Shown here: positions 7,992 to 43,153 of the stretch, in pieces | Position numbering within the stretch: the first letter of the stretch is position 1 | How the letters are laid out: each line of letters opens with the position of its first letter | DNA from: an uncultured Candidatus Saccharibacteria bacterium | GTDB taxonomy: Bacteria; Patescibacteriota; Saccharimonadia; Saccharimonadales; Saccharimonadaceae | Direction of reading: 5' to 3' | Length of the DNA stretch: 64,000 nt | Assembly (NCBI GenBank): GCA_964468665.1 | Contig: CAYXTS010000001.1 | Coordinates: 3,418-67,417 of the forward strand | The notes under the pieces: model-generated | The model's database searches: none | The model's input: the letters and a program-made list of their open reading frames with translations, nothing else | What the model was told of the DNA's origin: nothing | Position numbers and translations under genes: made by a program

Positions 7992-8063
7992 AGGGAAATA
8001 TTACTATACAAGGTGGTGAAAATCAACTATTTACAAATATTCATCTCGTGATATAATGTTTTT

Positions 8064-9614
8064 ATGAAAAAGCAGAGGTCTTACCAACAGGTAATAGGGG
8101 AAACAATTGAACATATGCGTCTAGAAAAGGGTTGGACGCAGGAGGAGCTTGCTCGGGCGGTTGGGTCTAGCCAGTCGGCGATTCATCGGATTGAGAAGGG
8201 TGGTCAGAATGTTTCTCTTACGATGATAAAAAAGCTCTCAGAAGCTCTAGGGAATCAAATCCTCTCTATAAACGATTCGGTTTCGCAGAGTTTTCGAATA
8301 AATGGCGGTAGAGAATTGGCGGGAGAAATTACGATTAATACTTCGAAGAATGCAGCAGTTGGCTTACTTTGTGCGGCTTTACTGAATACAGGAAAGACTG
8401 TGCTGCATCGGATTGCACGAATTGAAGAGGTGTTTAGAATTATTGAAGTATTGGAGTCGATAGGAGTGAGGTGCCATTGGACGAACCGTCATAGGGACTT
8501 GGAGATTATATCACCACGTGAATTAAAATTGGAGGATATGGATGTTGAGGCGGCGAGAAAAACACGTTCGATTATTATGTTTTTGGGGCCACTTCTGCAT
8601 AGATACCCAAGATTTAAGATACCCTATGCAGGTGGGTGTTCTTTAGGAACGCGGACTGTGGAGCCACATCTTCAGGCATTAAAATCTTTTGGGCTGAAAG
8701 TGGACGCGGAGTGCAATAGTGGATTTTATGAGGTGGAAGTTAGTCAAGAAACTTTACATAAATACAGAGATAGATATATTGTATTAACGGAACGCGGTGA
8801 CACGGTGACAGAGAATGTGTTGATGGCGGCGGCACTTGCTCCAGGTAAAACTACGATTGTGGGGGCTTCACCGAATTATATGGTGCAGGATGTTTGTTTC
8901 TTCTTGGAGAAGTTAGGAGTAAAAATATCTGGGATTGGAACTACTAGATTGGTGGTGACTGGGCGACCAAGAATAGATGTTGAGGTGGATTATCATATTT
9001 CGGAAGATCCAATTGAGGCGATGTCTTTTATTGCTGCGGGGTTAGTAACACATTCCGAAATAACTTTGCTCAGAGCGCCGATTGAGTTTTTGGAAATTGA
9101 ATTAGAAGTGCTAAAAAGCATGAATGCGAAATATGAGAAAACAGCTGAATATTTATCGGCAAACGGCAGGACAAGATTAGTGGATTTGACTATCAAAAAG
9201 TCTGAGTTGGTTGCGCCGATTGACAAAATTCACCCGATGCCATTTCCGGGGCTTAATATTGATAATCTACCGTTCTTTTCGGTGATTGCAGCGGTGGCAG
9301 AAGGAAGGACTTTGATTCATGATTGGGTGTTTGAAAATCGTGCAGTTTATATTACTGAGCTTGCGAACTTGAATGTAAAAGTGGATCTTTTGGATGCCCA
9401 TCGAGTGTATATTGAGGGACCGACCAATTGGCGACCAGCGGAATTAGTGGCACCCCAAGCGCTTAGGCCGGCCGTGGTGGTACTTATCGGTATGTTGGCA
9501 GCTCCGGGGAAATCTATTCTTAGAAATGTATATCCAATTAACCGTGGTTATCAGGATTTTGCGGCGAGACTGAGGCATCTTGGGGCAGATATTGTACCAC
9601 TTACTGGAATATAA
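8064..9614 (+). CDS. murA: XRE-type HTH domain fused to UDP-N-acetylglucosamine 1-carboxyvinyltransferase
   Basis: N-terminal TQEELARAVGSSQSAIHRIEKG HTH, then SKNAA, PYAGGCSLGTR (catalytic Cys loop), FENR and RGY MurA motifs. Confidence 0.85.
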   Translation: MKKQRSYQQVIGETIEHMRLEKGWTQEELARAVGSSQSAIHRIEKGGQNVSLTMIKKLSEALGNQILSINDSVSQSFRINGGRELAGEITINTSKNAAVGLLCAALLNTGKTVLHRIARIEEVFRIIEVLESIGVRCHWTNRHRDLEIISPRELKLEDMDVEAARKTRSIIMFLGPLLHRYPRFKIPYAGGCSLGTRTVEPHLQALKSFGLKVDAECNSGFYEVEVSQETLHKYRDRYIVLTERGDTVTENVLMAAALAPGKTTIVGASPNYMVQDVCFFLEKLGVKISGIGTTRLVVTGRPRIDVEVDYHISEDPIEAMSFIAAGLVTHSEITLLRAPIEFLEIELEVLKSMNAKYEKTAEYLSANGRTRLVDLTIKKSELVAPIDKIHPMPFPGLNIDNLPFFSVIAAVAEGRTLIHDWVFENRAVYITELANLNVKVDLLDAHRVYIEGPTNWRPAELVAPQALRPAVVVLIGMLAAPGKSILRNVYPINRGYQDFAARLRHLGADIVPLTGI

Positions 9615-9687: not shown

Positions 9688-11883
9688 ATGAATAAAATTG
9701 TGGAGGGACTAAACGAGAGACAGAGAGAGGCAGTGGAGACGCTCTCCGGGCCTGTATTGATACTTGCGGGGGCGGGGTCGGGAAAAACCAAGACGCTGAC
9801 ACATCGGATTGCGAATTTGATCAAGTATGGAGTAGAACCTGGACGAATTCTTGCGGTAACGTTTACAAATAAGGCGGCGAAAGAGATGCGAGGGCGGTTG
9901 TGGAACTTGCTAAAGGATGTTCTGGGGACGGGGTCGACTCGGCTCGTCGTCACGGGCGAGTCGCCCCTCGCTACCTCGGTCGTAACCTCCGGAGCGCCCC
10001 GAGAACATCCTTTAGCAAGTTCTCAGGAGCCGCCGCGATCTTTCATGCCGTATATGGGGACGTTTCACGGGATTGCGGTGAGGATTCTGAGGATTGAAGC
10101 AGAGGCAATTGGACTGGATAGGAATTTTGTGATTTATGATACGGACGACCAGGTGTCTTTGATTCGGCGAGTGATGAAGGAGCTGAAATTATCAGACAAT
10201 AAACAATTAAAACCAAAATCTATTCAATCAATTATTTCTGGAGAGAAGAATGTTGGTAATGGACCGGAAGATTATGCTATGAAAGCTTTTTATCCGAATC
10301 AACAAAATATTGCGAAAATTTTCAAAAAATATGAGGAAGAAAAAGAAAAGGCAGGGGCATTAGATTTTGATGATTTGTTGTTAAAAGAGTTGGAACTTTT
10401 GCAGAATTATCCAGAAATTAGACAAAAATGGCAGGAGAAGTTTCGGCATATTTTAATTGATGAGTATCAGGACACTAATCAAGTACAGTATAATATTGTG
10501 AAGTTGTTAGTAAACAAAGAGCGAAATATTTGCGTGGTGGGGGATGATTGGCAGTCTATCTATTCGTGGCGAGGGGCGGATTTTACGAATATTTTGAATT
10601 TTGAGTGGGATTTTCCGGGCGCTAAGTGTATAAAACTGGAACAGAATTATCGGTCTACTGGAAATATTCTCGAAGCGGCTCAGAAAATTATCAATGAGAA
10701 CAAGACTCGGACGGAGAAGACTTTGTTTACGGAATCTGGCAAGGGTGAGCCGGTGGATATAGAGTCTTTGCAGGACGAAACAGCAGAGGCGAATTATGTG
10801 GCACTAAAGATTTTGAATATGCAGCGAGATTATGGTGATTTTAGTGATTTTGCGGTGCTGTATCGGACAAATGCGCAGTCGTATGCTTTTGAAAAGGCGT
10901 TTATAGATATGCATATTCCATATAAAATTGTGGGTGGGGTGAGATTTTATGATAGGAAGGAAGTAAAGGATGTTTTGGCGCTATTAAAACTCGTATTGAA
11001 TCAACGGGATAAGGTAAGTTTGGCTAGGGTAGTAAACAACGTGTTGTCTGGAGTGGGGGAGGCGTCGCTTGTTAAGGTGCTCACAGCGATGGATGCGGTG
11101 GAAGGGGCAAGACCGCTATTTGATGCAGACGTGCCGGAAGTGCTGAAGGCCGGAAAGGCTAAAAACGGGTTAATGCGACTAATTGGATTTTTGAAAAAAT
11201 GTCAAAATGAGACAAATGTCTCACAAAATACAGGGGTAAGTGACAATTTTGGTGGGATGATGAATGTAGGCGAGATGGTGAGACTGGCGGTGGAGTATTT
11301 TGATTTTAGGAAACTGACGGATGATGGTACGCCAAGTAGCGATGAGAGGATGGGGAATCTGGAAGTACTAGTGGCCAATGCGACGGCGTATGATAGCTTG
11401 GAGGAGTTTTTGGCGGATGCGAGTTTGATGTCGTCGGCGGATGAGTCATCGGCGAAAAACTCTGTGACTCTGATGACGCTCCATGCAGCGAAAGGATTGG
11501 AGTTTCCGGTGGTGTTTATTGTGGGGATGGAAGAGGGGTTGTTTCCAAGCGGACGAGTGCTAGAGAATAATGCAGAGTTAGAGGAGGAGCGGAGACTAAT
11601 GTATGTGGGGATGACGAGGGCGATGCAGAGATTGTTTTTGACTTATGCGGGCTCTAGGTATGCTTATGGAAATAGGAGCTACAATATGCCGTCTAGGTTT
11701 TTGATGGAATTAGGGTACAATCCGTACGGTTCAGCTGGATACAAAGATAGAAATGGGGATGGTTTTACAGATATGGACGGCGAAGGGAGCGCCTATAGAT
11801 TTTCCGACGATAGTGAGTTTTTGGACAGTGATTTTGAGGGTGATTTTGACCCGTTTCCAGATGATTTACTGGTGTATGAATGA
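9688..11883 (+). CDS. pcrA: UvrD/PcrA ATP-dependent DNA helicase with a ~40-aa palindromic-element insertion
   Basis: AGAGSGKT, TFTNKAA, IDEYQD, VGDDWQSIY, LEQNYRS, TLHAAKGLEF, EERRLMYVGMTRA. Confidence 0.96.
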   Translation: MNKIVEGLNERQREAVETLSGPVLILAGAGSGKTKTLTHRIANLIKYGVEPGRILAVTFTNKAAKEMRGRLWNLLKDVLGTGSTRLVVTGESPLATSVVTSGAPREHPLASSQEPPRSFMPYMGTFHGIAVRILRIEAEAIGLDRNFVIYDTDDQVSLIRRVMKELKLSDNKQLKPKSIQSIISGEKNVGNGPEDYAMKAFYPNQQNIAKIFKKYEEEKEKAGALDFDDLLLKELELLQNYPEIRQKWQEKFRHILIDEYQDTNQVQYNIVKLLVNKERNICVVGDDWQSIYSWRGADFTNILNFEWDFPGAKCIKLEQNYRSTGNILEAAQKIINENKTRTEKTLFTESGKGEPVDIESLQDETAEANYVALKILNMQRDYGDFSDFAVLYRTNAQSYAFEKAFIDMHIPYKIVGGVRFYDRKEVKDVLALLKLVLNQRDKVSLARVVNNVLSGVGEASLVKVLTAMDAVEGARPLFDADVPEVLKAGKAKNGLMRLIGFLKKCQNETNVSQNTGVSDNFGGMMNVGEMVRLAVEYFDFRKLTDDGTPSSDERMGNLEVLVANATAYDSLEEFLADASLMSSADESSAKNSVTLMTLHAAKGLEFPVVFIVGMEEGLFPSGRVLENNAELEEERRLMYVGMTRAMQRLFLTYAGSRYAYGNRSYNMPSRFLMELGYNPYGSAGYKDRNGDGFTDMDGEGSAYRFSDDSEFLDSDFEGDFDPFPDDLLVYE
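9903..10022 (+). mobile_element. family-A palindromic element, in frame in pcrA
   Basis: Perfect 21-bp inverted repeat gaacttgctaaaggatgttct/agaacatcctttagcaagttc around a GC-rich core. Shares cgtcgtcacggg and tacctcggtcgtaacctccgga with the pepN copy. Confidence 0.8.
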
Positions 11884-12006
11884 TGGGTGATGTGGAAAAG
11901 ATTTTGTAAAAAACTTAATAAAACTATTGCTTAAAATAAAAACAAGCATTATAATAAAGAGTATTAGAATGTTAAATTCAAAATAGATCATAGGAGAAAC
12001 AAAGAA

Positions 12007-15000
12007 GTGCATTTTTTGGGGCATAGAAGATGTGTAGAGATGGGGGGGATTGTCGCAGTGGCGGTGGGCGTCATCGGTTCTGCTTTGGGTGCTGCTCCGG
12101 TTTCCGCTTATACTACTTCTATTACTACATCTGGGACGGTCTCGGTGGATGTATCTTCTGCTGGTAATGGAGCAAGTCTCGGTACAGATAGTGTAGTAGT
12201 GAATTCCACTTGTCCGCTAGGCTATACTTTGTCCATTGGTGGTCCTAGTGATTCTAACTTATATAAGGGCGGGGACAGTACTAGTGGTTATGCCATTAAT
12301 GCTTCTTCTGGTACAGCTGCTAACCCTGTGCCTATATTAGGCAATAACTATACCAATACATGGGGTTATACTACAGCTAGCAGTCCTACGATTAATTCTA
12401 ATTTTATCGGTTTATCTAGCACTACGAACACAATAGCCACTAAATCATCCGCTTCCGCTAGCGGTGGAGATACGGTATCAGTCCATTATGGTGTATCGGC
12501 AGATAAATCCTTAGAGGCTGGACGCTATACTATGGCAAATAGTGGAGCGGTAACATACTATCTCATCCAAAATCCTAATTGTTCTATAGTAAACGTAGCT
12601 TATGATGGCAATAACGCTACTGCTGGCTCTATGGGTGCACTTGCCCACAACAATGTAGCAGAGAATAGTAGTATAAATCTCTATCCATCCAACTATTCTA
12701 AAAATGGCTATGGTTTTGCTGGCTGGTCTACTGAGCAAATAGATCCAGATGCTAGTAATGCCGCTACCCTTATTAGTACCGCAGCAGCAAATGGTAATAT
12801 CTATGGTCCTATGGCTACCATTACTGCAGATGCTAATTTCTTAAGTCATGCAACAGTATCAGGTAATAATCTAGTCGTAACATTATATGCCGTTTGGGTA
12901 AAGCCAGTCAATAACGCTACACTCCAGGGTTGGACTGGGTGCCCTAGTATGAACCAGGGTGACGTCATCGCGCTAAAAGATCAGCGTGACAGCAATGCCT
13001 ATGCTGTAGCTAAGCTAGCTGATGGTAACTGTTGGATGATAGAAAATCTACGGTTAGATGCCGAAAATACCAGAGGAGCAAGCAATATCGCTCTTTCACA
13101 AGGCTACAACACTACTAACTTCACTGGTCTAGCAGATGCAGAAAACACTAACTTCTCTGATTCCACTACTACTAACTACAAAAATACCAATACTGCCTAC
13201 TATGGTGCAGATAATAGTGGTGCAGAAATTATTATCTCAGCTTCAGATCATACTTATAATAGTACAGATTATTCTGGTTATCATTTCCCACGTTATAATA
13301 ATAGCAATACCTCTTCTCGCAATTCTTCTCCTAGTGATGGAACTACGGCATTATATTCTTACGGTAATTATTACACTTGGTCTGCCGTAGTTGCCGACAC
13401 TACATTCTATCATACTAACAACCAATCTGTTACTGATACCTCACTTTGTCCTAAGAACTGGCGTCTCCCACAAGGTGGTAATAAAACCAGAATTACATCA
13501 AATGATGATAATGACTTCTGGAACCTAACTGTAGATTATCTAAACGGTGGTACTAACCCTGCCAACTATGATAGTAACACACAACCATATTACACAGGAA
13601 CAGCAGAAGCCACTCCAGTAGCCAATAAACTTAGAAGTTATCCCAATAACTTCCTCTACTCCGGCAACTTCTATACGTCGTCAGCGAATTATAGAGGTAG
13701 TTACGGCTACTATTGGTCGTCTACTGCGGACGGTAACAGCAATAGCTACTACTTGTACCTGAATAGTTCCTACGTGTACCCAGGTACCAGTAGTAGCAAT
13801 AAGTCCCGCGGCAACAGTATTAGGTGTATAGCCATTACAGACTACACTGTCCATTTTGATGCTAATGGCGGAAGTGGGACAATGAGTAATCAGACAATAT
13901 CTGCTGGTGCAGCTACTGCGCTTTCTACTAATACCTTTACTCCACCAAATGCTGTTGCCATCTTTGATGGCTGGAACACAGCAGCTGATGGTAGTGGTAC
14001 TAGCTATACGGACGGCGAATCTGTAACCAATCTCACTACCGTAGGACAAACCATTACCCTCTATGCTCAATGGAAGACCTACTTATATAATGCTGTATCG
14101 GTTCAATCTAAAGGCAAGCAAACTAACGATACCAATACTACGACTGGCATCAAGACCAATCCTACTGCCCCTACTTCATCAGCTACAGTTTCTCCTAACT
14201 CTGGTGTCTATGAGTATGATAGTAGTGTATTCGGTGCAGATACTGATGGTACTAAGAGTGACAGCACTAAAGCTACCATCTACTACTACCGTGGCATTCT
14301 AGACAGTTATGGCAATACTAATACCAATGGTAGTGCAGGGCTCTCCGATGCTTATCCAAACTACGTCATTCTTTCTGCAAATGGTACCAAATCCACTTCT
14401 GATACCTGCTGGCGTATTATCCGTACTACTGGCTCTGGTGGTGTAAAGATGATTTATAACGGTCTTTGGACTGGGTCTACCTGTGCTAATGGTACTACCA
14501 GTACTAGAATTAGCTCACCTGTTACTACTAGTACATTTAATGGTACAGCTAGCACGCAAGCGCAGGCTCGTCAGGCTGTGCGTGTAGGTTACACCCATAA
14601 CAGTACTTATGCAACAACTTCAGGTTCTAATGTAGCGGTGGATACATTGTTTGGCAGTGATTCTAATTATTCTGTAAACGATGCCAATTCTACTGTTAAA
14701 GATAATATAGAGACTTGGTTTGGTGATACTTTAAGTGATTATGAGGGCATGTTGGAATCAAATGCTAATTATTGCAATGATCGTTCTGCCTTTACTACGA
14801 CAGCTGGGACTACTGCCACTTCTACTCTTTATTCATATACCACCTCTACTAGTACTGGTACTAGCTATAGAACTTATTTTGGGTCTTATGTCAGGAACAT
14901 GACCACCAATAAAGCCCCAAGTTTAGGATGTTCTCGTAGTACAGTAGATAGATATAGCACTAGTACTAGTGCTGGTGGTAATGGGCAGCTATCATCACCT

Positions 15001-16035
15001 GTGGCTTTAATTACGGCAGACGAAGCGAGCTTTGCTGGTTCTGGTAGTAGTACCGCTAGCCAGGGCTCCGGCTATAGTGCCAACTCGTTCCTTAGAACTG
15101 GCGATACATTTTGGACTATGTCGCCTTATTATCGTTCGGGTTCTTACGCTTATAATTTCTATATGAACGCTAACGGTTATATGACTTATGGGCGTGTTGA
15201 TACCCAATATGATATCCGCCCAGTCATCTCATTTAAAGAAGGCACTACGATCGCTTCTGGCTCTGGTATTGCTACGGATCCGTGGGTGGTGAAAGTAGAT
15301 ACTGGTGGTATTTCGTATATGCAGAATTTGACACCTGTAACTTGTCAGAAGAACGTGGGAGCAGATGGAATAGGTGATGAATTTACAGCTTACGATAAAC
15401 GTGACAACAAAGATTATACGGTTCGCTATATCAATGGTTCTTGTTGGATGACCCAAAATCTTCGTTTTACGGATACTTCGGTTTCTGTTGCCAAATCTAA
15501 TGTTACTACTGACAAAACCCTTACTTATTATAGTTTAGATTCTAGTGACTCGTCTTATAGTGGCCATTGTGATAGTACTAATGCTTATGATAATGCCTGC
15601 ATCAAGGATTCTGGTTCTACTTCTACTGGAGTGTGGTACAACTACTATGCTGCTACTGCTGGTACTATTGCTGGTTCTTCTAATAACACTAATGCTACGC
15701 AAGATATTTGCCCAAAAAATTGGCATCTACCTTCTGCTCCTAATACTACAAGTGGTACTGACTTTAATGAGTTAATAGGTAATACTAACTCTGGGTGGCA
15801 GAGTGCCACTGCTGGTCTTACTGCTTTTGGCGCTGTTGCTGGTGGTGCTTATTCTATGACTACGGGTTCACTTATTAATACTGGATACGGTTATTGGTGG
15901 TCTGCTACTGCGCGGACTACTACATCACGTAATAATATGCGTTATCTTAGTAGTAGTAATACCTTTAATGGTAATGATTACTATGGTCGGGATACTTTTG
16001 GATTCTATGTCCGTTGCGTTCTTAGCGATACATAA
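12007..16035 (+). CDS. large secreted/surface protein: FISUMP-like domain, InlB-B-type repeat, DUF6273-like lectin-fold domain, second FISUMP-like domain
   Basis: Signal/TM N-terminus. DGNCWMIENL..CPKNWRLP..GYYWSST..SIRC; HFDANGGSG..FDGWNTAADGSG..LYAQW; WTMSP..IRPVISF; GSCWMTQNL..CPKNWHLP..YVRC. SD AGGAGA before GTG. Confidence 0.8.
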   Translation: MHFLGHRRCVEMGGIVAVAVGVIGSALGAAPVSAYTTSITTSGTVSVDVSSAGNGASLGTDSVVVNSTCPLGYTLSIGGPSDSNLYKGGDSTSGYAINASSGTAANPVPILGNNYTNTWGYTTASSPTINSNFIGLSSTTNTIATKSSASASGGDTVSVHYGVSADKSLEAGRYTMANSGAVTYYLIQNPNCSIVNVAYDGNNATAGSMGALAHNNVAENSSINLYPSNYSKNGYGFAGWSTEQIDPDASNAATLISTAAANGNIYGPMATITADANFLSHATVSGNNLVVTLYAVWVKPVNNATLQGWTGCPSMNQGDVIALKDQRDSNAYAVAKLADGNCWMIENLRLDAENTRGASNIALSQGYNTTNFTGLADAENTNFSDSTTTNYKNTNTAYYGADNSGAEIIISASDHTYNSTDYSGYHFPRYNNSNTSSRNSSPSDGTTALYSYGNYYTWSAVVADTTFYHTNNQSVTDTSLCPKNWRLPQGGNKTRITSNDDNDFWNLTVDYLNGGTNPANYDSNTQPYYTGTAEATPVANKLRSYPNNFLYSGNFYTSSANYRGSYGYYWSSTADGNSNSYYLYLNSSYVYPGTSSSNKSRGNSIRCIAITDYTVHFDANGGSGTMSNQTISAGAATALSTNTFTPPNAVAIFDGWNTAADGSGTSYTDGESVTNLTTVGQTITLYAQWKTYLYNAVSVQSKGKQTNDTNTTTGIKTNPTAPTSSATVSPNSGVYEYDSSVFGADTDGTKSDSTKATIYYYRGILDSYGNTNTNGSAGLSDAYPNYVILSANGTKSTSDTCWRIIRTTGSGGVKMIYNGLWTGSTCANGTTSTRISSPVTTSTFNGTASTQAQARQAVRVGYTHNSTYATTSGSNVAVDTLFGSDSNYSVNDANSTVKDNIETWFGDTLSDYEGMLESNANYCNDRSAFTTTAGTTATSTLYSYTTSTSTGTSYRTYFGSYVRNMTTNKAPSLGCSRSTVDRYSTSTSAGGNGQLSSPVALITADEASFAGSGSSTASQGSGYSANSFLRTGDTFWTMSPYYRSGSYAYNFYMNANGYMTYGRVDTQYDIRPVISFKEGTTIASGSGIATDPWVVKVDTGGISYMQNLTPVTCQKNVGADGIGDEFTAYDKRDNKDYTVRYINGSCWMTQNLRFTDTSVSVAKSNVTTDKTLTYYSLDSSDSSYSGHCDSTNAYDNACIKDSGSTSTGVWYNYYAATAGTIAGSSNNTNATQDICPKNWHLPSAPNTTSGTDFNELIGNTNSGWQSATAGLTAFGAVAGGAYSMTTGSLINTGYGYWWSATARTTTSRNNMRYLSSSNTFNGNDYYGRDTFGFYVRCVLSDT

Positions 16036-16361: not shown

Positions 16362-16437
16362 TGGTCTGGGTGATCGGACTTGAACCGACGACCTCAGCGT
16401 CCCGAACGCTGCACGCTACCAACTGCGCTACACCCAG
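16362..16437 (-). tRNA. tRNA-Pro(CGG)
   Basis: Cloverleaf; anticodon arm CAGCG TT-CGG-GA CGCTG; 3' CCA. Confidence 0.94.
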
Positions 16438-16454
16438 ACAATGATGAATTTGTT

Positions 16455-17380: not shown

Positions 17381-17456
17381 TGGTCTGGGTGACAGGACTT
17401 GAACCTGCGACCTCGACTTCCCAAAAGTCGCGCGCTACCAACTGTGCTACACCCAG
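17381..17456 (-). tRNA. tRNA-Pro(TGG)
   Basis: Cloverleaf; anticodon arm CGACT TT-TGG-GA AGTCG; 3' CCA. Confidence 0.94.
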
Positions 17457-17522
17457 ATAGTGTTATTATATCACATTTTGGGTTTGTGTGGTATAATTTA
17501 CTTACGTAAAGGAGAATTATAA

Positions 17523-33663: not shown

Positions 33664-33749
33664 TGAACGGGTGGCGCCTGGAGGGGGACCCCAAAAATGT
33701 TTTACAAAGTAAAAATTTTGGGGGAGGAAAAGGCGACAGGACCCGTTCA
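33664..33749 (+). mobile_element. family-B palindromic element in the clpC 5' UTR
   Basis: Nested inverted repeats tgaacgggt/acccgttca, cgcct/aggcg, ccccaaaa/ttttgggg, ttttac/gtaaaa; homologous to 42000-42087. Confidence 0.75.
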
Positions 33750-33762
33750 GAGAGAGGATTAT

Positions 33763-37010: not shown

Positions 37011-40000
37011 ATGTCTCCACACTATAAAACAAATATTATTTTTGTGCATAAAGCAATCGTTAGTTTACTGATTGCCTTTGTTGCAAGCTTTATTATCAAC
37101 GAAAATTCTGTTTTGGCTTATTCTTCTTCTATTACTACTTCGGGATTGGTGCAAGTAGATGTGTCTTCTACTGGTAATGGCGCCAGTGTGGGAACTGATG
37201 ACGTGATGGTAAATTCTACTTGTCCTTTGGGTTATACTTTGACCATTGAGGGTCCGAGCGATAGTAATTTGTATAAGGGTGGTGACGACACAAGTAATTA
37301 TAGTATTGCTTCTTCTGCTGGTACCTCTGATAACCCACTTCCTATTATTGGTGATGACGGACAGGGGTATAGTTATATGAATACTTGGGGTTATACTACG
37401 GAGTCTGGAGCTACTTTTAAGTCGAATTTTATTGGCTTAACTAATACAGCTACTACCCTTGCCACCAAATCATCCGCTTCTGCTAGCGGTGGTGATACCG
37501 TATCGGTTCACTATGGCGTATCGGCAGATAAATCGTTGGAGGTTGGATTATACACTATGGCGAATAGTGGAGCAGTGACTTACTATCTTGTTCAGAATCC
37601 TAGTTGCTCTACGATTGATGTGGTATATGATGGGAATGATGCTTCGGATGGGTCTATGGGTACTTTGTCTCATAGTAATGTAGCGGAGAATAGTAGTTTA
37701 GACTTATATCCGTCAAACTATTCGCGGGATGGTTATGGTTTTGCTGGGTGGTCTACTGAGCAGATAGATCCAGATGCAAATAATGCTGCTACACTTATTA
37801 GTACCGCTGCAGCTAATGGTAATATCTATGGTCCAATGGCTACCATTACTGCAGATGCTAATTTCTTAAGTCATGCTACAGTATCAGGTAATAATCTAGT
37901 CGTAACATTATATGCCGTTTGGGTAAAGCCAGTTGATAATGCTACTTTGCAGGATTTTATTTGCCCAGATAATACTGTTATGCCAGTTGGATCGGTGATT
38001 GCTCTAAAAGATCAGCGTGACAGCAATGCCTATGCTGTAGCCAAACTAGCTGATGGTAATTGTTGGATGATAGAGAACTTACGTTTAGATAATACCAATA
38101 GCGATAATTCTACGGGTGCACTGGCACAAGGCTATCATGGTGATACTATATTCGACCCAGAACTCGGTGGTATCTTTGCTGGCCTAGCTGACCCAGAATT
38201 CGATACTTTTTCTGACACCGCTATGGCAAACAGCCTATATTATAGCGGCACTCCATCTGGTACAGCTAGCATTAATATTGGTACAGACCATCCAGGTTAC
38301 CGTATGCCTCGTTATAACAATGAGAATACTTCGTCTAGAGCTTCTAGCCCAACAGACGATAATGGTGCTATGTATAGCTACGGTAATTACTACACTTGGG
38401 CGGCAGCTATAGCTAATACTTTTGGTTACAGTAATACTTTTCCAACAGATGATAACGGAAACACTAGTGAAACTGCAGGTACTTCCATTTGTCCTAAAGG
38501 CTGGAAGTTGCCATATGGTAAGGATACCGATAATGGAGCAACAAAGGGAGGTTTTTATTATCTTGGTTCTCAAATGGGGGCAACAGCAAGTAGTGAGGCG
38601 AGCTCTAAAATTTGGCGGAGCTACCCTAACAACTTCCTTTACTCCGGCTATTATTATGGTTCGTCTGCCAGTTCTAGAGGTTCTAGGTATAGTTATGGAA
38701 TGCATAGCGGCGATGGCTACTATTGGACATCTACCGTATATAGTATTGCAGGCTCGTATTCGCTGCTCATAAATGATTCGGGTGTTGCACCGGGTACTGG
38801 TAGGCCAATTAAAACCAATGGGAACAGCATTAGGTGCCTCGCTATCACAGACTACACTGTTCACTTTGACGCCAATGGTGGTAGTGGCACTATGAGCGAC
38901 CAAACTATTAATGTAAATACAGCTACTGCTCTTACTTCCAATGCCTTTACTGCGCCTGCAAACAGTGTATTTGCTGGTTGGAACACAGCAGCTGATGGCG
39001 GTGGTACTAGCTATACGAATGGACAATCTGTCACAGATATTACTACACCAGGAAAAACCATTACGCTTTATGCTCAGTGGGAGCCTGTAGGTTATAATGT
39101 GAAAGTTAATTTTGCAGGTAATGGCGTGAGTAATGTAAGGTTTACGGCAAGTGGATATACGACTAGGGTTGTGTCTACGAGTGGTGGCACTGCTAATTTG
39201 GTAGCAGGGGTGCAATATACTGTTACAATGAATTTTGTTAATGCCAATAATTATGAATTTGATAGTTGGGCATTAAATAGCAGTAGCTATGGGACTTTGT
39301 CTTCGACATCTGTAAATCCGACTTATTTTACGCCAAATGCTAATAGTGGGAGTGCGATAATCACGGCTACTGGGAAAGTGAAAGTGGTTTATATGCAGGA
39401 TTTGACGCTTGCAAGTTGCCAGAAAAATGTAGGGTCGAATGGTATAGGTGATGAATTTACTGTATATGATAAACGAGATGACAAGGATTACACCGTGCGC
39501 TATATCAATGGTTCTTGTTGGATGACGCAAAACTTGCGGTTTACAGAAACATCTTTGAATCTTGAAACTTCTAACGTTGGTGTTAATAAAACTATTTCTT
39601 ATGGTGATTTGACTTCTGGTGATAGCAATGTGGTAGCTAGAATTCATGAATCGGGCGATGATACGATTGGTGTTTGGTATAATTACGCGGCAGCTTCGGC
39701 TATGTATATTGCTACGAATTCTAATAGTAACTATTCTAGCTATGACATTTGTCCGAAGAATTGGCATTTGCCGACTGGGCCTAATACTACCGCAGACACT
39801 GACCTTAATATGTTAATAGGTAATACAATTTCCGATTTCCAGGATTTAACTGCAGGATTAGATAGTTTTGTGGATATTAATGGTGGTATTTATAGTGGTG
39901 GTACGTTAGGAAGTTCTAGCCTTGGTGGTTGGTGGTCTGGTACGGCTGGAAGTACGACTACACGTTACGCATTGATTTATGATGGTACAAATAGAATTCC

Positions 40001-40094
40001 AATGGGGGATCATTATGTGGGTGGTTTGATTAGTGGGGATGAAACAGAGTCTAGAGGAAGTGGTATGTTTGTGCGATGCGTGCGCAGTTCATAA
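37011..40094 (+). CDS. large secreted/surface protein paralogous to 12007-16035 (two FISUMP-like domains, InlB-B-type repeat)
   Basis: Same N-terminal module, DGNCWMIENL, CPKGWKLP, NSIRC, HFDANGGSG, GSCWMTQNL, FVRC. Confidence 0.8.
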   Translation: MSPHYKTNIIFVHKAIVSLLIAFVASFIINENSVLAYSSSITTSGLVQVDVSSTGNGASVGTDDVMVNSTCPLGYTLTIEGPSDSNLYKGGDDTSNYSIASSAGTSDNPLPIIGDDGQGYSYMNTWGYTTESGATFKSNFIGLTNTATTLATKSSASASGGDTVSVHYGVSADKSLEVGLYTMANSGAVTYYLVQNPSCSTIDVVYDGNDASDGSMGTLSHSNVAENSSLDLYPSNYSRDGYGFAGWSTEQIDPDANNAATLISTAAANGNIYGPMATITADANFLSHATVSGNNLVVTLYAVWVKPVDNATLQDFICPDNTVMPVGSVIALKDQRDSNAYAVAKLADGNCWMIENLRLDNTNSDNSTGALAQGYHGDTIFDPELGGIFAGLADPEFDTFSDTAMANSLYYSGTPSGTASINIGTDHPGYRMPRYNNENTSSRASSPTDDNGAMYSYGNYYTWAAAIANTFGYSNTFPTDDNGNTSETAGTSICPKGWKLPYGKDTDNGATKGGFYYLGSQMGATASSEASSKIWRSYPNNFLYSGYYYGSSASSRGSRYSYGMHSGDGYYWTSTVYSIAGSYSLLINDSGVAPGTGRPIKTNGNSIRCLAITDYTVHFDANGGSGTMSDQTINVNTATALTSNAFTAPANSVFAGWNTAADGGGTSYTNGQSVTDITTPGKTITLYAQWEPVGYNVKVNFAGNGVSNVRFTASGYTTRVVSTSGGTANLVAGVQYTVTMNFVNANNYEFDSWALNSSSYGTLSSTSVNPTYFTPNANSGSAIITATGKVKVVYMQDLTLASCQKNVGSNGIGDEFTVYDKRDDKDYTVRYINGSCWMTQNLRFTETSLNLETSNVGVNKTISYGDLTSGDSNVVARIHESGDDTIGVWYNYAAASAMYIATNSNSNYSSYDICPKNWHLPTGPNTTADTDLNMLIGNTISDFQDLTAGLDSFVDINGGIYSGGTLGSSSLGGWWSGTAGSTTTRYALIYDGTNRIPMGDHYVGGLISGDETESRGSGMFVRCVRSS

Positions 40095-41894: not shown

Positions 41895-43153
41895 AATATT
41901 TAGCAGTTCTAGGTAGACAACCGGAAATATCTATTGCAGAACTTGAAGCTATTTATGGTGGGGTTGAGCGAGTTTCGGATGTCTTAGTGTATTTTACATT
42001 GACGGGTGACGACTCTGGAAGGGGACCCCAAAATGTTTTGCGAAGCAAAAATTTTGGGGAGGGAGAAGAGTCGGCAGGACCCGTCGAGAGTATAAATAGA
42101 CTGGGTGGAGTTTTGAAACTCGCTGTGGTATTGGATCAGAAGCCATTAGAATATTTGCAAAATTTGTCAGATGGGAAGATTACGATTGGGGTGAGTGATT
42201 ATTCTGAAAAGGCGTCGAGGAAAAGTGCACAACAAGAAGCGTTGAAACTTAAGAAGATTCTAGTGAGGCATGGACGCTCAGTGCGCGTGGTTGAAAATAA
42301 AGATGCTACGCTATCGACGGCCACTTCTTTACATAATGGTTTGTCGGGGAAAAACGAGAGAAAAGTAGAACTAATTAAAGTTGACGATGATTGGTATAGG
42401 GTGATTGGTGTGCAAGATATTGATTTTTATGCGAAGCGTGATCAGGCTAGACCGGCGCGTGATGCTAGGGTAGGCATGCTTCCGCCGAAGCTGGCGCAGA
42501 TATTGATTAATTTATGTGGCCCACTTAAGTCTGGTTCTGTCGTTTTAGATCCATTTTGTGGAACTGGTGTAGTGCTTCAAGAAGCGTTGTTGATGGGCTA
42601 TCGTGTCTATGGAACGGATATTAGTGATAGGATGGTGGAGTATAGTAGGAAAAATCTTAATTGGCTAGTGAGAGATAAAAATAGTCATTTTGAGGGGGTC
42701 CGGAGCCTGGCAAGGCGAGGAGTAGCGCCAGCCGCCCGTGGCGACGGGCCGGCTGGACGCGCCCCGAAAAATGTTCTATTTTATCTCTCTGCTGGCGATG
42801 CAATTTCTTATACTTGGCAACAGCCTATCGATGCGGTGGCGTGTGAGGGATATCTTGGGAAACCATTCCCTAGAATCCCGACGGAAATGGAATTAAAAGA
42901 ACAGAAACAGGAATGCGGGGCGATTGTGAGAGGATTTCTAAAGAATTTGGCGGAACAGATTAAGTCTGGTACGCCGGTGGTGATAGCAGCGCCGGCGTGG
43001 CTGAGGGAAAATGGTGAGTATGAGAGGTTAGATATGCTTGACGATATTCCTGATATGGGGTATAATGTTAATAATAAAACGCAAGAGGGGCTTCTTTACC
43101 ATCGCGATGGTCAGGTTGTTGCGAGAGATATATTAATTTTAAGGAAAAAGTAA
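41891..43153 (+). CDS. class I SAM-dependent (probable RNA) methyltransferase carrying two palindromic inserts
   Basis: GMLPPKLAQILIN, VLDPFCGTG, GTDI, ACEGYLG. Confidence 0.8.
   Translation: MKYLAVLGRQPEISIAELEAIYGGVERVSDVLVYFTLTGDDSGRGPQNVLRSKNFGEGEESAGPVESINRLGGVLKLAVVLDQKPLEYLQNLSDGKITIGVSDYSEKASRKSAQQEALKLKKILVRHGRSVRVVENKDATLSTATSLHNGLSGKNERKVELIKVDDDWYRVIGVQDIDFYAKRDQARPARDARVGMLPPKLAQILINLCGPLKSGSVVLDPFCGTGVVLQEALLMGYRVYGTDISDRMVEYSRKNLNWLVRDKNSHFEGVRSLARRGVAPAARGDGPAGRAPKNVLFYLSAGDAISYTWQQPIDAVACEGYLGKPFPRIPTEMELKEQKQECGAIVRGFLKNLAEQIKSGTPVVIAAPAWLRENGEYERLDMLDDIPDMGYNVNNKTQEGLLYHRDGQVVARDILILRKK
42000..42087 (+). mobile_element. family-B palindromic element, in frame in the methyltransferase
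   Basis: Nested inverted repeats gacgggt/acccgtc, cgactct/agagtcg, ccccaaaa/ttttgggg, ttttgc-gaa-gcaaaa. Confidence 0.75.
42670..42789 (-). mobile_element. family-A palindromic element, reverse orientation, in frame in the methyltransferase
   Basis: Arms gagagataaaa/ttttatctctc and cattttgagggg/ccccgaaaaatg; reverse-complement core cccgtcgccacggg. Confidence 0.75.

Follow-up and report, generated by a model that had tools for sequence, protein, structure and literature searches.

The cis elements 3′ of a variable repeat (VR) are considered to be needed for the retrohoming of diversity-generating retroelements (DGRs), hence the VRs that these elements write from a template repeat (TR) are almost always C-terminal in the target protein (PMC8144416, PMC3240598). 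Among the targets already described, those of category d have DUF1566, DUF823 or Fib_succ_major motifs and CLec2-type VRs, for example LdtA of Legionella (Wu et al. 2018, PMC5758913), and the seven remote targets of Treponema denticola have their VR away from any cassette and form a multi-copy family (PMC4891356, PMC5758913). Here we analyse a VR that is internal in its protein. It lies in P0001, a surface-protein gene of an uncultured Candidatus Saccharibacteria bacterium (contig CAYXTS010000001.1); positions are those of the 64,000-nt stretch of this contig that was studied (the window). We consider it probable, at about 0.72, that a DGR genuinely wrote this VR, which belongs to a mosaic surface protein, and that the VR has since been orphaned and has probably become static. 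The features on which the argument is built are the following:

12007 to 16035, plus strand: surface-protein gene P0001, 1342 aa, from the list of open reading frames (ORFs) and its translation
12892 to 13842, plus strand: domain d1, aa 296-612, a divergent FISUMP / Fib_succ_major domain (PF09603), the VR being its C-terminal end
13650 to 13828, plus strand: TR-templated stretch (the VR), 179 nt, aa 549-608, 84.9% identical to the TR of the congener G098 (locus L051, 8058-8236)
13843 to 14070, plus strand: InlB B-repeat (Flg_new, PF09479), aa 613-688, fused directly after ...SIRC-IA

By comparison with the category d targets (PMC5758913), the VR of P0001 is likewise placed at the C-terminal end of a Fib_succ_major-like domain, its variable codons correspond to the AAY codons of a TR (Y being C or T), and it keeps the conserved skeleton ...YWSST...SY.L.L.SS.V.PGT....K..G.S[IV]RC. 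It is a further example of an already known DGR variable-repeat type. The differences are that its own genome is without TR, reverse transcriptase (RT) or accessory gene, and that about 730 residues of P0001 follow the VR, with no stop codon and no 3′ homology to a TR there. With the Treponema denticola targets it shares the position away from any cassette and the multi-copy target family; those targets are defined, however, by a TR of the same genome from which they differ by A-to-N changes only, and P0001 has no such TR.

A sequence-only reading of this DNA had proposed that an internal segment of P0001, whose peptide GNFYTSSANYRGSYGYYWSSTADGNSNSYYLYLNSSYVYPGTSSSNKSRGNSIRC is encoded by 13663-13827 in the frame of ORF 12007-16035, was a DGR-type VR in a FISUMP-like domain, derivable by adenine-only change from a hypothetical template rich in AAC and AAT. 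The internal position is correct (aa 553-609 of 1342), and the template turned out to have a real counterpart. When the region 13560-13900 was used as query for a DNA search in 101 congeners, it led to genome G098 and to the template repeat of its locus L051 (G098:C49), which we call TR98; our own genome is referred to as G000. The DGR of G098 is organised as follows, in coordinates of L051:

8058-8284: TR, inverted relative to the RT and to the VR and target, recognised from the cognate TR/VR pair
8349-9500: RT, adjoining the TR, RVT_1 match of 39.5 bits
9501-10526: accessory ORF with a helix-turn-helix (HTH), following the RT
11463-13421: FISUMP target of 652 aa, which holds the cognate VR

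In the cognate TR/VR pair of G098, 28 of the 29 mismatches fall at TR adenines; its genome has 10 further TR-like copies, with secondary VRs that show 7-15 non-A mismatches. The VR of P0001 aligns with TR98 over its 179 nt without gaps, with 27 mismatches, 19 of them at TR adenines, so that 19/63 A positions are changed against 8/116 non-A positions (p=1e-4). At the protein level the pattern is even clearer. Between the TR98 peptide, NFNTSSANNRGSNGNYWSSTANNNNNSYNLNLNSSNVNPGTNNNNKNNGNSIRC, and our VR peptide, NFYTSSANYRGSYGYYWSSTADGNSNSYYLYLNSSYVYPGTSSSNKSRGNSIRC, all 16 residue differences are located on Asn codons (16 of 23 Asn changed, against 0 of 36 other residues; p=2e-9). In 15 of the 16 changed Asn codons the change is A-only, and the products, Y, D, G, S and R, are every one accessible from AAY. 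The adenine-only derivation therefore holds against a real TR, that of a congener. Taking into account its non-A mismatches, our VR is as near to TR98 as the secondary VRs of G098 itself, with which it also shares the invariant residues.

The limits of the homology are sharp. Its 5′ edge is TR base 8058, identical to the edge of the TR/VR pair of G098, and upstream of it the identity to TR98 drops to chance level (12/60 nt). Downstream it is again at chance level (19/70 nt), the homology ending at 13828, right after ...SIRC, and at both ends of the VR there are perfect matches of 19-22 nt to TR98. Three of the 8 non-A mismatches are a single Ser codon switch, TCG to AGC, which is common to the internal VR of another congener, G248, and so probably comes from a variant TR; the remaining five, all synonymous, are G:C-to-A:T transitions of the kind that drift would produce in an AT-rich genome. 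The same positions vary across the genus: in an alignment of 52 congener d1 homologues the entropy was 2.88 bits at the columns of TR Asn residues and 1.11 bits elsewhere (p=1.6e-10).

The codon usage of the segment, from which the DGR had been suspected, was recounted. The sequence-only reading gave 8 of 11 Tyr codons as TAC; the count is 7 TAC and 3 TAT among 10, and the bias itself stands, both against the rest of P0001 (21/67; Fisher p=0.005) and against the long ORFs of the whole genome (1818/5610; p=0.003). It had also regarded NNC and NNT codons together as special. The NNC part is confirmed, with third-position C at 0.39-0.40 in the segment and 0.19 outside it in the gene (p=0.001), the highest such peak of P0001, which has two further peaks of 0.38-0.40; taken together the two kinds of codon are not special, as third-position pyrimidines amount to 0.74 in the segment and 0.72 in the remainder of P0001. 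The real codon signal is C over T, that is, NNC inside a genome that prefers NNT.

The age of the templated stretch was estimated by the synonymous difference among codons of identical residues between G000 and G098, which belongs to another species (its housekeeping genes have 72-76% nucleotide identity to ours). For pcrA this difference was 45%, for the murA-like gene 52% and for the body of d1 upstream of the VR 47%. Between the VR and TR98 it was 4/35 codons (11%; p=6e-5 versus pcrA and 1e-4 versus the d1 body). The writing of the stretch, from a TR98-like template, is therefore much younger than the divergence of the two genomes, and it follows that this TR type has been exchanged between species or is unusually constrained.

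Considering these results, the DGR origin of the stretch is strongly supported. The contrary proposal, that no DGR was involved, attributes the richness in Tyr, Ser and Asn and the TAC bias to selection on binding loops or to local composition, and the likeness to a TR to ordinary paralogy. It can appeal to the abundance of N, S, T, Y and G in the whole protein, to the two other peaks of third-position C and to other paralogues with weak TR likeness. Nevertheless, paralogy predicts neither the clustering of mismatches at template adenines, nor the confinement of all residue changes to Asn codons, nor a sharp start at the 5′ end of the TR, nor a synonymous divergence four-fold lower than in the flanking domain and the housekeeping genes, and we regard this proposal as close to refuted.

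The sequence-only reading went further and saw in P0001 a remote DGR target, to be confirmed by finding a non-coding near-copy of the VR beside an RT/Avd pair. Nothing of the kind was found in our genome, an assembly of 816 kb in 60 contigs that is 92.8% complete. An HMM (hidden Markov model) search for RVT_1 gave 0 matches there, while the same search found an RT in 34 of 61 relatives, 28 of which are among the 36 genomes of the same genus in the first sample; with the RT of G098, tblastn gave a best E of 0.56 in our genome, that is, no RT. The HMM search of the genome for Avd (PF05635) also gave 0 matches. Short-word blastn for a near-copy of the VR in the window and the genome returned none, the nearest paralogues being 67-71% identical; an all-against-all blastn of the 816 kb for A- or T-biased imperfect repeats gave no A-biased pair; and the TRs of congeners, searched in our genome, matched coding paralogues and nothing else. 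The HTH accessory of G098 matched in our genome by its N-terminal HTH only, to an HTH-Fic gene on contig C31.

Two sets of candidates were discarded in the course of these searches. Our own FISUMP paralogues (on C19, C31, C6, C22, C4 and C2, the window gene P0002 and the C-terminal domain d2 of P0001) were considered as hidden TRs or fresh VRs; against the sampled TRs they reached 59-71% identity, and their A bias was weak. A remnant of a DGR accessory was suspected in the HTH gene next to the C31 paralogue; this gene encodes an HTH-Fic protein whose match is confined to the HTH part. The gene (C31:3429-4355, minus strand, motif HPFSDGNGRTGR) immediately follows a canonical FISUMP paralogue, and an orthologue with 68% identity is found about 1.3 kb from the DGR TR of G021 (L020 11725-12639). 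Fic and PIN genes are also present at the flanks of the DGR island of G098.

That island, of about 7.5 kb (PIN, TR, RT, HTH accessory, target and Fic), lies in G098 between homologues of PGK and the murA-like gene. In our window the two genes are adjacent, and the corresponding empty site is the spacer between them:

7992 to 8063, no strand: empty site between the PGK and murA-like genes, from blastn synteny of L051 against our genome

The VR of P0001 also lacks the 3′ part of its relatives. The cognate VR of G098 stays homologous to its TR for about 50 nt beyond SIRC, over the stop codon, and our VR is without this extension of canonical VRs because it is fused to the InlB-type repeat; the Flg_new repeat of P0001 occupies the place of the stop codon and the 3′ TR-homologous region of canonical targets. 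DNA folding in search of a hairpin or cruciform 3′ of the VR, in our flank and those of G098 and G106, gave z-scores that were all near 0.

The VR sequence was found to be base-for-base identical in three other assemblies, L117 (ERZ28019072), L118 (ERZ28018966) and L114 (Logan SRR12529053). L117 differs from the window by 3 single-nucleotide polymorphisms (SNPs) in 21.9 kb, none of them within P0001, and contigs of 33-69 kb pass unbroken through the VR. Other assemblies of the species do break inside P0001, at stretches shared with paralogues (12160-12183 in the N-terminal region, and the YGYYWSST core at 13700), not at the variable codons. A working remote target in this genome is thus not supported, considering the missing RT, Avd and TR, the VR that does not vary in four assemblies and the absent 3′ extension. 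The sequence-only reading had itself named the absence of TR and RT, and of excess polymorphism, as refuting it, and the outcome at the level of assemblies agrees with both.

To place the internal VR among its relatives, 20 congener RT loci were examined for TR/VR pairs. At 15 of them there was a pair of imperfect repeats in which 83% or more of the mismatches fell at the adenines of one copy, and the VR was inside a long target ORF in 14 of these 15 pairs. The FISUMP-type motif W[ST]...[VIL]RC closes 12 of these targets, with 0-6 residues left before the stop codon, and the other two are of the '..VRP' type; the TR/VR alignment extends 13-54 nt beyond the stop codon in 11 of 14. Our segment is the homologous part of such targets, one of which, in G017, ends in ...KLRTFPNNFVYSGYVNVSSVVYRGSYGYYWSATASSLFNAYYFSFYGAYVYPGTNDINKYVGRAVRCLVGS followed directly by the stop codon. 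Homologous VRs of this type were C-terminal in all the first loci examined, 0-8 residues before the stop. In many DGRs of the genus (L051, L017-L021, L024, L028, L030) the TR is inverted relative to the VR and target and 2.2-3.3 kb from the VR; others have the usual direct order, VR and then TR, about 450-500 nt apart.

It was also possible to see that the internal arrangement is not restricted to P0001. A protein search with aa 470-760 returned mostly multi-repeat InlB proteins, together with Saccharibacteria fusion proteins, and matches that span the junction of d1 and Flg_new were found in several dozen of 301 congeners, besides other Saccharibacteria proteins. Several such fusions (P0061, which belongs to G248, P0118 and P0037, which belong to G275, P0109, and the C10 protein of G106) have the architecture of P0001 and differ in their junction sequences, each copy having its own set of residues at the TR-Asn positions. 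RT was absent in 11 of 20 tested genomes with the d1-to-Flg_new fusion. The most informative congeners are these:

G248 (P0061), 99% complete: no RT; internal TR98-type VR with 27/63 A and 10/120 non-A mismatches
G095, 99% complete: no RT; TR98-type VR with 27 A and 2 non-A mismatches
G031, 98% complete: RT present, with a TR of another type (L013); ten TR98-type VR copies
G027, 97% complete: no RT; one TR98-type VR copy
G106, 94% complete: RT present; the resident TR matches the internal VR, with 23 A and 5 non-A mismatches

When the internal VRs of eight congeners that have both were compared with the resident TRs, a TR of matching subtype was found in G106 only, and there the internal VR has a 3-nt indel relative to its TR, which indicates that the copy is drifting. 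The VR of G095 (C9:1060-1243, L059) is in a genome of 10 contigs with no RVT_1 match, and TR98 is for it the template of a different species; its DGR island may have been lost very recently, or be mobile and have escaped binning. The VR copies of G031 are distributed over C16, C42, C26, C24, C41, C34, C43 and C15, with 80-84% identity to TR98. Orphaned DGR-written VRs are common in the genus, and that of P0001 is among them.

The window contains a second gene with the same architecture, which bears on how the VR became internal:

37011-40094: P0002, paralogue of P0001
38688 to 38849, plus strand: equivalent internal VR-like segment of P0002, far more decayed than the VR of P0001

The P0002 segment has 26/49 A and 26/78 non-A mismatches to TR98 and a 10-aa insertion; non-A mismatch is thus 33%, against 7% in the VR of P0001. 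The two genes have a common junction, SIRC-[IL]AITDYTVHFDANGG, that is, ...SIRC[IL]AITDYTVHFDANGGSG, and the junction window is 90% identical in amino acids. P0001 is P0002-like to about aa 345 and again from the junction onwards; between these points its d1 is like that of canonical C-terminal targets (C19, C31 and G098 type). Two routes fit these facts, namely a patch copied from a canonical target by recombination, or homing into a VR that was already internal.

The first route is a sub-variant of the orphan explanation, in which a patch of about 13060-13830 was copied from a canonical C-terminal DGR target, with crossovers in ...CWMIENLRLD and ...GNSIRC. It agrees with the mosaic just described and with the end of the TR homology exactly at the conserved SIRC motif; many Saccharibacteria proteins plainly show such domains shuffled as modules, and intragenic recombination of target modules has been proposed by Roux et al. 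(PMC8144416). Against it, the present genome has no donor gene with this VR, its closest paralogues being those of 67-71% identity, and since G248 has a similar d1 body with an internal VR of this TR type, the event would be recurrent or old. We hold the patch to be possible, at well below even odds.

Four points weigh against an orphaned and static VR. The samples behind the other assemblies may be related to each other, and consensus contigs hide minor variants. The assembly is incomplete and in many contigs, and congener cassettes are often at contig ends, so that a cassette could be missed or unbinned. The 8 non-A mismatches may reflect a slightly different TR of our own lineage and not decay. 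And the VR of P0001 is fresher than that of P0002 despite the shared fusion junction, which fits writing after the fusion, into the internal VR, unless a patch was introduced by gene conversion.

The second and fourth of these points are also those that favour P0001 as an active remote target, in which a TR98-like cassette, located on a mobile element or on a contig that was not assembled or not binned, still rewrites the internal VR, either through the perfect matches at its two ends or with its own TR, one that fits the Flg_new junction at the 3′ end. Further support comes from a footprint that is both strong and young, from an NNC bias still uneroded in a genome that prefers NNT, and from G106, where an internal VR before a Flg_new-like repeat does match a resident TR. 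That VR is itself drifting, however, and equally fresh VRs exist in near-complete genomes without RT. Neither RT nor TR nor Avd is present in the assembly of our genome, whose site corresponding to the G098 island is unoccupied; four assemblies, one of them from a strain with SNPs elsewhere, agree base for base in the VR, and no assembly breaks at the variable codons; and the 3′ TR-homologous region, present on all canonical VRs of the family, is missing here, where 3′ cis elements are considered necessary for retrohoming (PMC8144416, PMC3240598). An active target is therefore unlikely, and the DGR was probably lost rather than missed.

A further reading supposes that TR98-type cassettes are horizontally mobile islands or episomes that cross between Saccharibacteria species, rewrite resident FISUMP domains, including internal ones without the canonical 3′ cis region, and are then lost. 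Such cassettes would leave fresh VRs in genomes without a matching RT, as in our own, G095, G248, G027 and G031. We find this quite improbable as it stands; if it were true, homing into an internal VR would be possible without an intergenic element of the initiation of mutagenic homing (IMH) type, and one transient retroelement, shared across the genus, would service its entire repertoire.

Returning to the orphaned VR, a past DGR with a TR nearly that of G098 would have supplied adenine-mutagenised cDNA, which would have overwritten the C-terminal binding face of the FISUMP-type domain d1 and turned AAY codons into TAC, GAC, GGT, AGC, TCC and CGC. This retrohoming presumably took place in our own lineage, in situ or in a canonical C-terminal target with later recombination. 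The domain now stands within a modular surface protein of 1342 aa, joined to an InlB-type repeat directly after ...SIRC. Taking into account that RT, accessory gene, TR and 3′ cis region are all lacking and that the VR is invariant among the sampled populations, we infer a fixed, Tyr/Ser-rich ligand-binding surface and not ongoing hypermutation. That surface presumably serves the adhesion of an epibiotic bacterium to host cells or particles.

The architecture of P0001 agrees with a mosaic protein. A hydrophobic N-terminus and a conserved N-terminal region are followed by the FISUMP-like d1, the InlB/Flg_new repeat, a middle region of about 400 aa and a second FISUMP domain, d2. Scanned as a whole, P0001 reached 45.7 bits with PF09603 (cut-off 33.9) and 41.8 bits with PF09479 in Pfam, and 75.8 bits with TIGR02145 (cut-off 41.65) in NCBIfam, in 3 stretches. 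When d1 was scanned alone, the PF09603 match had 28.6 bits (E=2e-6) and extended from position 5 to position 186 of the 187 in the profile; the cut-off of 33.9 bits is not reached and the profile is covered nearly in full, so that d1 is a divergent member of the FISUMP family. The AlphaFold2 (AF2) model of d1 had good scores (predicted local distance difference test, pLDDT, 88.3; predicted template modelling score, pTM, 0.89). Foldseek of this model against the PDB gave nothing at E<=0.001, the best match being the C-terminal domain of Legionella Lcl (E=0.067), and a profile search of d1 against PDB sequences gave 0 hits. The putative assignment of d1 to the C-type lectins, the fold of DGR variable proteins such as Mtd and TvpA, is drawn from published work in which VRs of Fib_succ_major type are classed as CLec2 (PMC5758913).

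Beyond d1 two more segments of P0001 recall the VRs of the genus:

15085 to 15228, plus strand: second VR-type module, aa 1027-1074, FLRTGDTFW..RPVI, from local alignment to the TR peptide of L011
15391 to 16035, plus strand: C-terminal FISUMP domain d2, aa 1129-1342, with PF09603 at aa 1142-1338

Many non-Asn changes separate the first of them from the L011 TR, and their relation is therefore old or at family level only. The end of d2 can be likened to a third DGR VR type (L020 TR), also at family level, with 17 non-Asn changes and 73% identity over 45 nt in blastn. P0001 combines three modules, each akin to a different DGR VR type of the genus, d1, the L011 type '..FW..SP...VRP' and the L020 type '..WWSST...YVRC' (15830-16035); a fresh TR footprint is seen in d1 alone. 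Two other kinds of repeat were noted in the window. Just downstream of P0001 there are two 82-nt direct repeats, 82% identical (16362-16443 and 17381-17462), which resemble tRNA genes on the minus strand and flank a 220-aa ORF, and GC-rich palindromic repeats are located at 33685-33752 and 42021-42090 (GGGACCCCAAAAATGTTTT...AAAATTTTGGGGGAGG).

For the family, these results mean that the codon pattern can be enough to recognise a DGR footprint, which the template of another species may then verify, and that a VR-like sequence alone does not mean an active DGR target, which should be kept in mind in annotation. The templates in the genus are far more conserved across species than the housekeeping genes, and the VRs that fit the TR of another species nearly perfectly, in near-complete genomes without RT, form a pattern that may be worth studying. 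For these bacteria, the binding sites written by DGRs can persist as fixed modules of large mosaic adhesin-like proteins once the retroelement is gone.

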